Shown here piece after piece: positions 7,306-42,733 of a stretch of 64,000 nucleotides of DNA (its first letter is position 1; every line of letters starts with the position of its first letter). The stretch is from contig CAWHCF010000044.1 of the NCBI GenBank assembly GCA_963827655.1, positions 192,001 to 256,000 on the forward strand. The letters run 5' to 3'. This stretch comes from an uncultured Acidobacteriota bacterium. Its GTDB lineage: Bacteria; Acidobacteriota; UBA6911. The notes beneath the pieces were generated by a model. That model was given only the letters and a program-made list of their open reading frames with translations. It was not told where the DNA came from and ran no database searches. A program made the translations under genes and the position numbers.

Positions 7306-7449
7306 GGCTGCAACCAGACGAGATCTTCTTCGTGTCTTCGCGTCTTAGATCCTATGTAGGGCGGCAGCTCGCAGGGTCGAAAGAGCGGGCCGTTCTTGGT
7401 AAGCTCCTTTTGGGTTTAGTTGTCTAATCCAAAACAAAAAGGAGAAACT

Positions 7450-8605
7450 ATGACCAAGACGACCCGCAACCAACAGTATAGCGATATTCGACCGACATTG
7501 TTTATGGCATTTGAGCTAGGGATGTCGGAATGGAAACTGGGGTTCACGATTGGGCTGGGGCAGAAGGCGCGAAGGCGCACGGTAACAGCCGGCAACCTTG
7601 AAAAAGTACAGAGGGAGATCGTGGCCGCCAAGAAACGGTTCCAACTTCCGGAGACGGCCGAGGTGGTGAGCTGCTACGAAGCAGGGCGGGATGGGTTTTG
7701 GCTGCATCGATACTTGACGCAGTCTGGGATCGGGAACCTGGTGGTGGACTCAGCGAGCATTGAAGTGAACCGGAGAAAGCGGCGAGCTAAGACGGATCGC
7801 ATGGACGTGGAGAAGTTGCTGACCATGCTGATTCGGTATCAGTACGGAGAGCACAGGGTCTGGAGCGTGGTGCGAGTACCTTCGCCCGAAGAGGAAGATA
7901 ACCGGCAGTTGAATCGAGAGCTGCGCAGCCTGAAGAAGGAGAAGACGCGGACCACCAATCGCATCAAGGGACTACTGGCGAGCCAGGGGGTCAGGCTTGA
8001 GCCTGGGAAGGAGCTGTCGGACAAGAAACTGGACTCGATCAGGTTATGGGATGGCTCGCCATTGCAGCCGGGGTTAAAAGGCCGCCTGCAGCACGAGTGT
8101 GCGCATGTGGTGTTTTTGAAGCGACAGATCCTGTCGCTGGAGGGGGACCGCAGGCGCGAACTCAGAGAGGGAGAGAACCCGGACCTGGACCAGGTTCGCC
8201 AGCTTGCGTCTTTGCGCGGCATTGGTGTCAACGGCGGTTGGGTGCTGGTGCGAGAGTTCTTCGCCTGGAGGGAAGTTTAACAACCGGCGCGAAGTGGGGT
8301 CGCTGGCGGGCCTGACGCCGACCCCCTATCAGAGCGGGGAATCGAGGCGGGAGCAAGGGATTAGCAAAGCCGGCAACCGTCACGTCCGGGGGGTAATGAT
8401 TGAGCTGGCCTGGTCTTGGGTGCGCTTCCAGCCCAAGAGCAAGCTTACTCAGTGGTTCGAGGAGCGTTTCGGCGGTGCGGGCAAGCGCGTCCGTAGGGTT
8501 GGAATAGTGGCTGTGGCACGACGCCTGCTGATCGATATGTGGAAGTTCCTCGAGACCGGAGCTCTGCCCGAGGGCGCGCAACTGAAAAAAGTAGTAGTCG
8601 CTTAG
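7450..8605 (+). CDS. IS110 transposase/recombinase, frameshift near 8273
   Basis: RuvC-like LFMAFELG..CYEAGRDGFWL..KTDRMD. The second frame gives FNNRREVGSLAGLTPTPYQSG (catalytic Ser) and ISKAGN..IVAVARRL. Confidence 0.92.
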
Positions 8606-9044
8606 ACGGAGAGAAACCAGAACGTGAGAACGTTCGAGACCTAAACAGCCTATGAAACCTCAGGTGTTGTTTTCCTCTTGCGGCCATTGTGCTCCGGCCG
8701 GCCCCAGCGGCGTCAAGGCTAAACCCTTTGGGCGCGCTGTGCGCGGCCTTGACCCCGCGGGCCGACCGGAATTTTTGGCCGCTAAGAGGAAAACAACGGA
8801 GAGTAAACCAACTTCTCGGCATGGTGGGACTGCCCGAAAATACCACTGGTATCCGTTTTGGAACCGGTTCCTAGATGGGGCGTCCCGAAAGCGCTCGCAC
8901 ATTTTTCGCCACCGCGCGAATACAGGATTGGGTGTCCGATCACTACACGATCGGCACGGATAGAAGTTTCATTCGGGGTCTATCCCCGAATCAGACACCG
9001 AGCCACCAGCTGCAGACGTAACCAAGGAGGTCAACCGAAGGAGC
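8606..9044 (+). ncRNA. Putative bridge RNA / seekRNA in the IS 3' non-coding end (exact ends unknown)
   Basis: Long hairpin 8666-8797. Stem with internal loop 8826-8886 carrying the target match AAATACCACT. Stem with internal loop 8917-8975 carrying the donor match ATAGAAG. Confidence 0.8.
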
Positions 9045-9068
9045 TTGACACCCAAGACTACATAGAAG
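9045..9068 (+). promoter_or_regulatory. Outward-facing -35 (TTGACA) at the IS right end; candidate circle-junction promoter
   Basis: TTGACA at 9045-9050. On circularisation it lies 17 nt from GATCCT (9068 plus 7349-7353), a weak -10-like hexamer upstream of the transposase. Confidence 0.6.
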
Positions 9069-17757: not shown

Positions 17758-18021
17758 GCGGCAGCAAGCTGCCGCCTGGAATTTGGACATTTCGCAGGCT
17801 CGGCGGCGCGCGTGCGGTTACCAGGGCCGAAGGCCCGGCAGTGGATAGCCCCGCCCGCTAGGGCGGGGACTTGCACGACCTCGAGTCCGAGGTCCGAAGG
17901 ACCGGCACTCCGACTGTGTCGCACCTTCGGCGCTCGTTTTAAACCTGAACTCTTTTCCCCGGCCTTACGGCCGGGCCTACGCACTGCCCGCCCTTCGGGC
18001 CTTGCGGCAGCTTGCTTCGCG
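17758..18021. repeat. REP/REPIN-like multi-hairpin cluster
   Basis: GCGGCAGCAAGCTGCCGC palindrome; hairpins GGGCCGAAGGCCC, CCCCGCCC..GGGCGGGG, GGTCCGAAGGACC, CCCGGCCTTACGGCCGGG. Partial inverted copy at 33581-33662. Confidence 0.75.
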
Positions 18022-39644: not shown

Positions 39645-41057
39645 ATGAACATGCTGATCAGATTTTCAAGAAGAGTCAGAGTTACCGGTTTCCTGTTCCT
39701 CTTTGTCTTGTCAGGAGCGAACTTGGTTCTCCCCCAACCCAGAGCCGACCAGATAGAGCCGCGCGCCGGCACCTGGAAGACCTGGGTGCTCTCATCGGGC
39801 AGCGAGCTTCGTGTGCCGCCCCCGCCCAATCAGACCGTCACCGGCTTCGAGATTGAGTGGCTGCGATCGCTGGACACGGAACGAAACGAGATCGCGCTCA
39901 AGCACGCCCACCACTGGAACGCCGGATCACCCGCCTACCGGTGGGTCGAACATGTGATCAAACGCATCGTCGAAGGGAGAGCCGGCGCGGTCAACATGAT
40001 TCGCATGTGGACCTACGTGACCATGGCCATGCACGACGCTACGATCGCGGCCTGGGACTCGAAGTATTTCTACAACCGCCCGCGCCCAAGTGAGGTCGAT
40101 CCGACCCTGGCGACTATTTTTCCCAACCCGCGAAGTCCTTCTTACCCATCCGAGTACGGCGCTGCGGCCGGCGCGGCTTCGGCTGTCCTCGCCTATCTCT
40201 ATCCCGGTGAAGCGCAGGCGCTCGCAGTACTCGCCGAGGAAGCCACCCGATCCAGACTGTACGCGCGCGTTGAATACCCAAGCGACTACTTTGCCGGCCT
40301 CGAACTCGGGCGGGCCGTGGCCGCAAAGGTGATCGAGCGCGCCCGCGCGGATGGCAGCGATGCGGTGCCGAATCTGACGGTTCCGACCGGACCCGGCTTC
40401 TGGATAGGCACCAATCCGATCGGTCAGACAATCCCGAACTGGAAAGCCTTTCTGCTCTCCGCCAACAACGAATTCAGGCCCCCTCCTCCTCCCGCTCATG
40501 ACTCGCAAGAGAAGGCGGACGAGTTAGCCGTGGTCCGAAACCACCCTCGGGCCGCCGGTAGTCCGGCGGCTTTCGAGACCAGCTGGAGAGCGATGCTCAC
40601 CGAGTCGGGCGAAGGCGTACGCACCTCCTGGCACCACCTGGCCAGCCAAAAGATTTTCGAATACCGGCTGGAAAACAATCCACCTCGCGCGGCCCGTGTG
40701 TACGCGCTGGTAAGCGTCGCTCAGTTCGATACTCAGATCGCGTCCTATGACGGGAAGTTCACCTATTGGGCCCCGCGTCCTTCGCATCTGGACAGCAGCA
40801 TCACCCCCCTCTTTCCAGTACCGAACCACCCCTGCTATCCATCCAATGGCGCCGCCTACTCGCGAGCTCCGGCGGAAGTTCTAGCCTATTTGTTCCCACA
40901 AGACGGCGACGCTATTCTCGCCAAAGGCGTGGAACAGGGCATGTCACGGATTTGGGCGGGTATCCATTTCCCGAGTTGCTTCAATGCCGGCCGAGCCATG
41001 GCCTTGAGGGTGGCCCAGAAGGTCATTGCCTGGGCGGAAAACGATGGCTCGAGATAA
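39645..41057 (+). CDS. Tandem PAP2 / vanadium haloperoxidase-like secreted protein
   Basis: KYFYNRPRP..PSYPSE..SRLYARVEYPSD and KFTYWAPRP..PCYPSN..SRIWAGIHF; GAGGAGG RBS. Confidence 0.8.
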   Translation: MNMLIRFSRRVRVTGFLFLFVLSGANLVLPQPRADQIEPRAGTWKTWVLSSGSELRVPPPPNQTVTGFEIEWLRSLDTERNEIALKHAHHWNAGSPAYRWVEHVIKRIVEGRAGAVNMIRMWTYVTMAMHDATIAAWDSKYFYNRPRPSEVDPTLATIFPNPRSPSYPSEYGAAAGAASAVLAYLYPGEAQALAVLAEEATRSRLYARVEYPSDYFAGLELGRAVAAKVIERARADGSDAVPNLTVPTGPGFWIGTNPIGQTIPNWKAFLLSANNEFRPPPPPAHDSQEKADELAVVRNHPRAAGSPAAFETSWRAMLTESGEGVRTSWHHLASQKIFEYRLENNPPRAARVYALVSVAQFDTQIASYDGKFTYWAPRPSHLDSSITPLFPVPNHPCYPSNGAAYSRAPAEVLAYLFPQDGDAILAKGVEQGMSRIWAGIHFPSCFNAGRAMALRVAQKVIAWAENDGSR

Positions 41058-41150
41058 GTAGCGAGGTGCTGGCGCCCGACAAGATTGCTGGCGTTTCTTC
41101 GAGTCTTTGAGTCTTAGTGGTTGGTTTTGTTCGCCGCACCAACCACTAAG

Positions 41151-41390
41151 GGTTCGCGCAGAAATAAGTTCGCATTCTGCTGCAGGCCCCCAGGCCCGCT
41201 GGCGAGGCGCGAGCGACGATGCGTACCCGGCGCGGTACGTGAGGAGCGAGCAACAAAGCCAGCGGGCTGCGGGCCGCAGCCCGAAGGGGCGCGCTCCTCA
41301 AGGTGCCAGGCTGGGTTGCTGACAGAAACCTCGGTTCAAAATGACCCACGGATTCTCGCGCCAGAATGTGAAGTTATTTCTGCGCGAGCC
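41151..41390. mobile_element. 240-bp MITE with 29-bp terminal inverted repeats and target duplication
   Basis: GGTTCGCGCAGAAATAAGTTCGCATTCTG / CAGAATGTGAAGTTATTTCTGCGCGAGCC (26/29). Flanked by CTAAG direct repeats (41146-41150, 41391-41395), which can also be read as a TAA duplication with GGG/CCC ends. Confidence 0.85.
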
Positions 41391-41422
41391 CTAAGACGCG
41401 AAGACACCAAGAAACGCCAAGC

Positions 41423-42733
41423 CTACGATTTCGCGATCTTCATCTTCATGAACACCAGACCGGTCAGAAGCTTGGGGTAGAAGTCCGTCGACTTCTGGGG
41501 CATGCGCTCGCCAAGAACGGCGATCCGCTGCACTTGCTCCACGCTGGTCGGGTTGAGAAAAAACGCGGCCTGGTAACGTTCATCGTCCACTCGCCGGATA
41601 CAAGCCTCCCGGTCGCGAGCGTAATCCACGTGAGCCTGGGCTACCAGCTTACCCTCATCGATCCCAAGCAGACGATTGAGAACCAGGGTATGCAGAATGC
41701 TGACGTCCAGGTGGCGGTACGCCTCCGGATGTGACAGCATGAACGGATCGACCTTGGCTTCTTCCTTCAGGCGAAGCAGAGAAAAGCTTCGCGTGTCTCC
41801 GGGGTAGAAACCAAAGACATGGGAGGAACTCCGCCCCGCCATCATCTTTTCCCAGAGAAGCGCGCTCGATGCCACGGATTCGATTTCAAAGAAGCGCCTC
41901 GCCTCGCCCAGAAAGTTGCGTGAATTGAATTCAGGCAGATCGCGAATCAACCGGTGTGTTGGAAGTATCGTGATGCCCCGATCGGCGCTGTTGAAGCAGG
42001 CTACCAGCCGCTTGTCGAAAGATTCAATGCCCGCCGGTTTGAAACCGCTGGCCTCGCATTCCTTCATGAAATTGACCGACGTCTCGAAACGATGGTGTCC
42101 GTCGGCGATGAAGAGTTCCTCGGGAACCATCGACTCGGCAATTTTCTTTATCACCGCGGGATTGGTGATAATCCAAACCCGGTGTTTGACTCCGAAATCA
42201 TCACTGACGTCGATCTCGGGATGGGAAAGCGAGGCAGCTTCATCAAGCATGCCGTTGACCGCCACCTTATCGTCGGTATACAGCATGAAGATGAGGTCCT
42301 CGTTACATTCGGTCGCCCGCATGAGGCGCAGCCGATCCTCTTTGGGTTCCGCCATGGTGCGTTCATGCGGCAGAACGCCCGAGCCCGAGTGCTTCAAGTC
42401 CAGCAGAGCCATAAAGCCCCGCCTCACTTTCGCCTTACCTTCCACTTCATAGTACTGGTAGTAGACGTAGATCGCCGGCTCAGGGTCCTGGATCAGCACT
42501 GAATCGCGGATCCAGCCTTGCAGCGTGGAAGACGCTTCAGAATAATCCGTGTCGGGATTGACGGTTTTTTCCAGGCTCTTGGTAATGCGCGCCACATTGT
42601 AGGGCGAGCGGCGATAGTAATCCTGCTGCAGCTCCGGAGAGATCTTGTCGTAGGGTTGTGTGACCAGCCGATCGAGGTCGCCGGCCTGCGTCCTGTTGTA
42701 GCGATATGCCCGGAATGGATGTAACTCAGCCAA
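41423..42733 (-). CDS. DUF1015 family protein
   Basis: PFRAYRY, PYDKI, LPHERT, IADGHHRFET, MPQKSTDFYPKLLTG. Confidence 0.9.
   Translation of the reverse strand: MAELHPFRAYRYNRTQAGDLDRLVTQPYDKISPELQQDYYRRSPYNVARITKSLEKTVNPDTDYSEASSTLQGWIRDSVLIQDPEPAIYVYYQYYEVEGKAKVRRGFMALLDLKHSGSGVLPHERTMAEPKEDRLRLMRATECNEDLIFMLYTDDKVAVNGMLDEAASLSHPEIDVSDDFGVKHRVWIITNPAVIKKIAESMVPEELFIADGHHRFETSVNFMKECEASGFKPAGIESFDKRLVACFNSADRGITILPTHRLIRDLPEFNSRNFLGEARRFFEIESVASSALLWEKMMAGRSSSHVFGFYPGDTRSFSLLRLKEEAKVDPFMLSHPEAYRHLDVSILHTLVLNRLLGIDEGKLVAQAHVDYARDREACIRRVDDERYQAAFFLNPTSVEQVQRIAVLGERMPQKSTDFYPKLLTGLVFMKMKIAKS

Follow-up and report, generated by a model that had tools for sequence, protein, structure and literature searches.

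The insertion studied here lies in the window (the whole stretch of 64,000 nucleotides that was analyzed, from an uncultured soil bacterium of the Acidobacteriota) between two convergent genes, a PAP2 superfamily gene that ends at position 41057 and a DUF1015 gene that ends at position 41423 (Table 1). The space between them contains a palindromic repeat of an octamer type. The 5' arm of this palindrome (41089–41125) pairs with a 3' arm that is interrupted by a MITE, such that the 3' arm is now found in two parts (41138–41149 and 41395–41419). The junctions read ACCAC TAA / GGGTTCGCGCAG...CTGCGCGAGCCC / TAA GACGCG, and in wider context CCAACCAC TAA / GGGTTCGCGCAGAAATAAGTTCGCATTCTG ... CAGAATGTGAAGTTATTTCTGCGCGAGCCC / TAA GACGCGAAGACACC.

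Table 1. Features at the MITE insertion and at another copy of the repeat, which carries an IS110-family element. Positions are those of the window.
Feature	Positions	Strand	Basis and remarks
Left flank of the IS110 element (a repeat arm)	7326..7348	+	Flank reading; ends in CGCGTCTTAG
IS110-family element in another repeat copy	7349..9068	+	1720 bp; BLAST, flanks, domain search
Upstream gene, PAP2 superfamily	39645..41057	+	Domain search; convergent with the DUF1015 gene
Host palindromic octamer-type repeat, 5' arm	41089..41125	+	Inverted-repeat pairs, folding, BLAST
3' arm, inner part (ACCAACCACTAA)	41138..41149	+	Sequence reading, inverted-repeat pairs, folding; severed from the remainder of the arm by the MITE
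TAA target-site duplication, left copy	41147..41149	.	Sequence reading and family flanks; C before
MITE, noncoding	41150..41391	+	242 bp; sequence reading, end matching, BLAST, consensus comparison, folding
Left terminal inverted repeat of MITE, GGGTTCGCGCAGAAATAAGTTCGCATTCTG	41150..41179	+	Inverted-repeat search and end matching
Right terminal inverted repeat of MITE	41362..41391	-	27/30 identical to left end
TAA target-site duplication, right copy	41392..41394	.	Sequence reading and family flanks; G after
3' arm, outer part (GACGCGAAGACACCAAGAAACGCCA)	41395..41419	+	Sequence reading, inverted-repeat pairs, BLAST
Downstream gene, DUF1015	41423..42733	-	Domain search; end 4 nt past the repeat arm

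The length of the inserted element is 242 bp, or 240 bp when its outer G and C are assigned to a 5-bp duplication. A repeat finder returned inverted arms that include flank bases (41146–41179 and 41362–41395; 34 nt, 88% complementary), and the 30-nt end of the element matched the window at only two places, with 0 and 3 mismatches, where 0 matches are expected. Folded as single-stranded DNA, the element forms one long hairpin (-77.2 kcal/mol, z -7.95). It has no coding capacity, 242 bp being too short for a transposase. The element is a MITE, that is, a nonautonomous element of the TIR/TSD type, with the TAA duplication and the GGG/CCC ends that the original prediction had given as one of two readings. 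When the MITE and one TAA were removed in silico, a 95-nt hairpin (-54.1 kcal/mol) containing ACCACTAAGACGCG was recovered, and hence the restoration of the repeat that had been claimed to follow excision holds.

The repeat is abundant. A BLAST search with its arm yielded 632 hits over the 8.18 Mb of the genome, and these have the consensus ACCAC-N-AAGAC-N-CGAAGACACGAAGAAAC. The first N of this consensus is T in 30% of the hits, G in 32%, C in 20%, and A in 15%, and so about a third of the arms hold CTAAG. Eleven arm pairs with a wider spacing were compared in this genome, and no cargo is common to them.

An empty allele of the locus was sought in related genomes, as had been suggested, and in soil sequencing runs. 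No such allele was found in 30 relatives (none of these 30 being of the same genus) or in four soil runs. Only the downstream gene is conserved among the 30 relatives (67–71% identity). Contigs of the four soil runs cover the flanks at 5–13x, and of the two MITE junctions only the occupied left one is bridged, in runs X1 and X17, either of which may be the source sample. Joints in the soil contigs that skip 258–271 bases were considered as an empty allele and rejected; they carry other loop letters, which assigns them to other copies of the palindrome and not to this locus.

The MITE has many relatives in the genome. BLAST with the element yielded 86 alignments of ≥200 bp, 62 of 60–199 bp, and 35 shorter ones. 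The genome-wide count of terminal inverted repeats that the original prediction had called for gave 261 ends over the 8.2-Mb genome, which form 104 paired elements and 53 solo ends. Seventy-four of the paired elements are 200–259 bp in size, 27 are 120–159 bp, two are 160–179 bp, and one is 280–299 bp. Compared to a 233-bp consensus, 75 long copies have a median identity of 97.0%, with the best copies at 99.6%, and by these identities the 233-bp form looks to have been recently amplified. The copy in the window is 89.3% identical to this consensus, as against the family median of 97.0%; its left 145 nt are nearly identical to the consensus, and its right side is diverged and has a 9-nt insertion. 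It is an older, diverged member of the family with no sign of present activity.

A perfect duplication of TAA or TTA is found in 65 of the 104 paired copies, within flanks that are unrelated to one another, and the proposed TWA duplication is confirmed at the level of the family. Forty-eight of these 65 lie inside CTWAG. Flank bases were counted in the 68 of 86 long copies that have canonical ends (the remaining 18 were excluded), and among these 68, C is at position -4 in 57 and G is at position +4 in 61. The same flanks can be read as a 5-bp duplication of CTWAG around a 240-bp element with GG...CC ends, instead of TWA around an element with GGG...CCC ends, and for the 48 perfect cases within CTWAG the two readings are indistinguishable. 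The other 17 of the 65 lack the outer C or G, the mismatch occurring exactly at the outer positions, which favors a 3-bp over a 5-bp duplication. The longer duplication also disagrees with flanks of the form CTTA/../TTAA (four copies) and TTAA/../TAAG (two copies) in this genome, with CCTAA..TAAAT or GGTAA..TAAGG cases in other phyla, and with the 3-bp duplications that relatives of the Zator group make, as given in the available part of PMC12905397. We consider the 5-bp reading very unlikely. At one place in this genome, an esterase-like gene and an ORF of 169 residues lie between two MITE copies that are inverted relative to each other (G000, contig C10:29110–31605; L105 5311–7806). Both copies have a duplication of their own, which indicates two independent insertions rather than a composite transposon.

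In the IS110-family element of the window, a single additional G at 8270 disrupts the transposase frame, as compared with the copy on contig C37. Four further copies occur in the genome at 96.7–99.6% identity, on C37, on C10 (two copies), and on C20 (a truncated element). The intact protein encoded on C37 has the DEDD domains of the family, matching PF02371 at 2.4e-18 and PF01548 with 27 bits, just below the cut-off of 29. Subterminal inverted repeats are located at 7351–7360 and 9058–9065 of the window element, and its 3' part of ~460 nt is noncoding.

The window IS110 element is flanked by CGCGTCTTAG and TGGTATTTG, and from these flanks the empty site is the reverse complement of the 14-mer at the MITE site. 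All five genomic copies are inside or at the edge of a repeat arm, with the flanks CGYGTCTTAG / TG[GT]T (left, CG[CT]G..TTAG or a closely similar sequence). Read in the direction of the arm, the target sequence is A[AC]CA-CT-AAGAC[AG]CG (A[AC]CA-CT-AAGACNCG, also written A[AC]CACTAAGAC), and the CT is found both in this target and in the end of the element. The window and C37 copies are positioned at the inner start of the arm; the motif recurs at the arm's outer edge, and the other three copies are found there. Free matches to the 14-mer number 46 in the genome, and those listed are in repeat arms. The IS110-family element is site-specific for this 14-mer of the repeat arm. Its exchange, ACCA/CT/AAGACGCG, overlaps the C[TAA]G of the MITE by one base, and the two elements do converge on the same motif, as the original prediction had stated. 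One palindrome on C10 carries both: an IS110 copy is present at the outer edge, and the 3' arm contains a MITE.

Several short features were seen in the noncoding 3' part of the IS110 element. The segment AAATACCAC at 8838–8846 is a 9-nt match, on the other strand, to the element's own target flank, and CTAAGA occurs at 8782–8787; these two are possible guide segments of a putative seekRNA-like transcript. A long inverted repeat (GTTGTTTTCCTCTTGCGGCC ... GGCCGCTAAGAGGAAAACAAC) at 8670–8800 may be part of the IS110 RNA or a nested small element. An Rfam search of the noncoding 3' part gave nothing at the gathering score. The sole Rfam family in the window is the Acido-Lenti-1 sRNA, at 17823–17868 on the minus strand (44.6 bits, gathering score 37).

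The convergence of the two elements had been interpreted as evidence that the repeat is a shared landing pad. The pentamer CTWAG is rare in this genome, with 3153 occurrences versus 12225 expected from base composition (~0.26 of the expected number, a four-fold depletion). The tetramer CTAG is at 0.12 of its base-composition expectation over the whole genome. Pentamers at the arm position were identified by a weight matrix on the 24 arm positions outside the pentamer. By this score, 11 of 104 MITE-occupied sites (10.6%) are at the arm position, compared to 236 of 2949 free CTWAG sites (8.0%), giving an odds ratio of 1.36 (p 0.36; 95% interval ~0.7 to 2.6 by hand arithmetic, the enrichment test being of low power). 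Outside long ORFs, the values are 5/29 versus 113/976 with a first crude mask (odds ratio 1.59, p 0.37) and 7/53 versus 162/1519 with a second crude mask (odds ratio 1.27, p 0.50). A 68-copy count places 9 of 68 occupied and 237 of 2988 free sites at the repeat. When the repeat was defined more loosely, by the presence of an octamer unit within 30 nt, the occupied fraction is 17/104 (16.3%) and the free fraction 517/2949 (17.5%; p 0.90). Measured against random DNA, MITE copies show a strong concentration in the repeat; measured against the availability of the pentamer, they do not.

Were the repeat a true hotspot, the MITE transposase would be recruited by more than the mere presence of CTAAG, namely by the hairpin or cruciform structure of the repeat or by a protein that binds there, and the repeat would be a safe pad shared with the IS110 element. 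In keeping with this, a motif that makes up only a minute fraction of the genome has 11 of 104 copies at a single position; the C10 palindrome occupied by both elements and the point estimate above 1 also agree with it. In addition, three more MITE copies are at the arm position and score low through indels (C4:77545, C21:78886, and C22:128484); including these brings the ratio to ~1.8. The excess over free CTWAG is not significant, however, and the looser definition of the repeat removes it. Moreover, 93 of the 104 paired copies are in CTWAG contexts other than the arm position, and the same ends occur in CTWAG in other phyla, the repeat not being required. A hotspot is therefore an unlikely explanation, and the tabulation of insertion sites, with 93 of 104 elsewhere and no significant enrichment in the repeat over free CTWAG sites, gave the outcome that the original prediction had named beforehand as contrary to it. 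The MITE does not prefer the repeat as a landing pad, and the convergence consists of two target motifs that overlap on an abundant repeat: the IS110 element and the MITE share a landing spot because the rare pentamer CTWAG sits inside the site-specific 14-mer. In 'type 1' targeting of REP sequences (Tobes and Pareja 2006), all copies are at one position of the repeat; here, this position holds 11 of 104 MITE copies, and the IS110 copies are divided between the inner (two) and the outer (three) occurrence of the 14-mer.

TWA duplications are typical of PIF/Harbinger and some IS5 groups. An IS5-like mobilizer had been proposed for the MITE, and an IS5 or PIF/Harbinger-type transposase would account for the TWA duplication and could be sought among the six PF01609 matches of this genome. 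No MITE end, however, is located within 2.5 kb of any PF01609 locus of this genome, and the six matches were rejected as mobilizer, as they have other ends. PF13359 and PF13586 were both not found in this genome, and PF13359 is present in none of the 51 genomes of the bacterial family. Likewise, no MITE end was seen, at ≤4 mismatches of 18, beside 30 PF01609 loci taken from five MITE-rich genomes that belong to other groups. PF01609-like proteins of 520–590 residues, which are common to four of the five MITE-rich genomes (G063–G066), were also considered as candidates; they are absent from this genome. Elements that carry the ends encode ISAzo13-family proteins instead, and we regard a transposase of the IS5 or PIF/Harbinger type as extremely unlikely to be the mobilizer. 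A different PF01609 element, of 1.25 kb, is present in two copies that are 96.9% identical (G000 C9:54213–55460 and C4:55296–56534), and many short dispersed repeats of 47–60 bp were noticed beside it.

Pairing of ends in this genome, as a search for an autonomous partner, gave MITE-sized pairs only; two wider pairs are separate copies. Metagenomes were scanned with the 22-nt MITE end, which yielded at least 118 loci, and among the matches listed (118), 50 end pairs are MITE-sized and three are of ~1.9 kb. The search for an autonomous transposase with the same ends, which the original prediction had recommended, was successful here. The metagenomic element L200 is 1907 bp in length, has the MITE 22-mer at both ends, and matches PF07592 at 2.2e-114 (382.1 bits, cut-off 26.9). 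Its orfB scores 398.7 bits on NF033519, the model of the ISAzo13 family transposase (cut-off 200), and the model is covered by the tail of orfA (model positions 3–77) together with orfB (70–387). A second metagenomic element, L168, is 1916 bp and matches PF07592 at 3.9e-22, and L160 (metagenome) is a further ISAzo13 case with these ends. The 1926-bp element L275 comes from a genome of the same bacterial family; its two ends are of the MITE type, and its layout is one of two ORFs in a -1 relation.

The genome under study has one ISAzo13 element of this kind (G000 C41:62586–64543, 1958 bp). Its left end, GGGCCCGCGCAAAAATAAC, agrees with that of the MITE in 18 of 22 positions, and its right end is diverged. 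TTA is present on both sides, and the element abuts a MITE copy, with one TTA being common to both. Pieces of its transposase score 214.1 and 114.4 bits on PF07592, and there is one frame break beyond the shared shift between orfA and orfB. This copy may be dead, or the extra break may be an assembly error.

The C41 element, L200, and L168 all have orfB shifted by -1 against the frame of orfA, and in each of them a run of eight A (A8) is located just before the orfA stop; L275 has no run of seven or more A. The two-ORF transposase has an extra N-terminal part of ~195 residues. PF07592 is present in 13 of the 51 genomes of the bacterial family, many of these cases being elements of ~1.3 kb with one ORF of ~400 residues and other ends, unlike the two overlapping ORFs seen here. 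We infer from the location of the gene between the ends in L200, L168, L160, L275, and the C41 element that an ISAzo13 transposase moves elements with these ends. The flanks of L200 and L275 are not direct repeats, the left one being CTAA and the right one TTAG (TAA versus TTA); such flanks would result if an inversion took place between two copies in opposite orientation.

We put at about 0.8 the probability that the element at 41150–41391 is a MITE derived from an insertion sequence of the ISAzo13 family, that TWA is duplicated within CTWAG, and that the spot is shared with the IS110 element through overlap of motifs. The source of the transposase would be elements of ~1.9 kb, in which two overlapping ORFs would require a -1 shift for the full ISAzo13 protein; this shift is probably a programmed one, and in three of the elements it coincides with the A8 run. 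Judging from the flanks, the transposase would recognize the GGGYTCGCGCAGAAATAA... ends, insert at CTWAG, and duplicate the central TWA. Because of the GGG...CCC ends, CTWAG is re-created at both junctions whenever the element inserts. The presence of this MITE copy in the hairpin repeat is explained by ~30% of the arms reading ACCAC-T-AAGAC with CTAAG, the pentamer being rare otherwise. The repeat itself does not attract the MITE, and the CT exchanged by the IS110 element overlaps the duplicated TAA by one base.

These properties relate the MITE family to known systems. Zator has been paired with ISAzo13-like transposases (PMC5718144), and Zator-1 makes 3-bp duplications of TAA or TTA (PMC12905397), as stated in the available portions of these reports. 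Elements with the MITE ends resemble this group in two respects: they exceed the curated cut-offs of PF07592 and NF033519, and they have the 3-bp TAA/TTA duplication of Zator-1 as it is described there. The available text on the Chunjie MITE of Geobacter uraniireducens (PMC3184786) describes a bacterial MITE of similar size that also has a hairpin fold, but its direct repeats are of 9 bp and its ends of 21 bp, and it belongs to a different family.

For the IS110 element, the closest precedent is the targeting of REP sequences, which the available part of Tobes and Pareja 2006 (PMC1525189) attributes to five IS families, IS110 and IS5 among them. Similarly, the IS110 element here is at the repeat in 5/5 copies; its host repeat, however, is an octamer-built acidobacterial hairpin and not a proteobacterial REP of the kind treated in that text. 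The element also resembles ISPpu9, ISPpu10, IS621, and the IS1111-type seekRNA elements, which the available portions of the literature describe as IS110-family elements that are site-specific in intergenic palindromes. Its layout is like that of the seekRNA elements in these same portions, with a long noncoding part downstream of the gene and short subterminal inverted repeats, and the hint of a guide RNA is only the 9-nt match at 8838–8846.

In the literature, the MITE end sequence was not found as text; supplements with MITE lists, such as those of PMC11602168, may contain the family. No paper was found that ties a MITE to ISAzo13, and the two terms co-occur only in a general survey. An ordinary MITE insertion is known already, as is this kind of target choice by IS110 elements, intergenic palindromes having been reported since PMC1525189, in its available part. 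New are the assignment of the MITE family to ISAzo13, the CTWAG/TWA target, and the two-ORF transposase.

The MITE ends are widespread. The exact 22-nt end was found at no fewer than 63 loci of the genome collection and in at least six phyla; among the matches listed, the assemblies are from Acidobacteriota, Desulfobacterota-type, Myxococcota, Fermentibacteria, Kiritimatiellae, and Verrucomicrobiota. Perfect TWA duplications are present in 22 of 36 paired elements of other phyla among these listed matches. The 63 listed loci were rejected as an autonomous source, the homology being MITE-sized in all of them and the ORFs beside solo ends not being transposases. The contiguous relative G034 has 18 end matches, all of which are MITEs or due to chance. 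PF07592 was not found in some of the MITE-bearing genomes, such as G007 and G034 (the latter being 100% complete), which indicates that copies can outlive their transposase or travel without it. The plasmid collection gave no MITE match, and the viral contigs gave 0.

A broader reading, which we advance tentatively and at somewhat less than even odds, is that the ends belong to one ISAzo13 lineage across at least six phyla. This lineage would have a two-ORF transposase made by a -1 frameshift (with A8 in three of four elements) and a near-invariant 22-nt end, and its MITE families would persist without the transposase gene. Its choice of CTWAG/TWA would be shared with eukaryotic Zator, and in a genome with a four-fold depletion of CTWAG, in which the remaining pentamers are concentrated in hairpins between genes, this choice would steer insertions to harmless places.

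ISAzo13 is a little-studied family, and it gains from this analysis a defined end, a CTWAG/TWA target, a transposase that is likely to be controlled by frameshifting, and a large MITE progeny in several phyla. The TWA match with Zator supports the link that has been proposed between the bacterial and eukaryotic groups. A practical use is in the annotation of soil genomes, in which MITE copies break assemblies and split genes. IS110-type and MITE sequences are also found together outside this genome: on the metagenome contig L170, two MITE ends located 1895 bp apart (79–1973) enclose an IS110-family transposase (PF01548, 3.7e-20); here an IS110-type element has become nested within a MITE of the present family.
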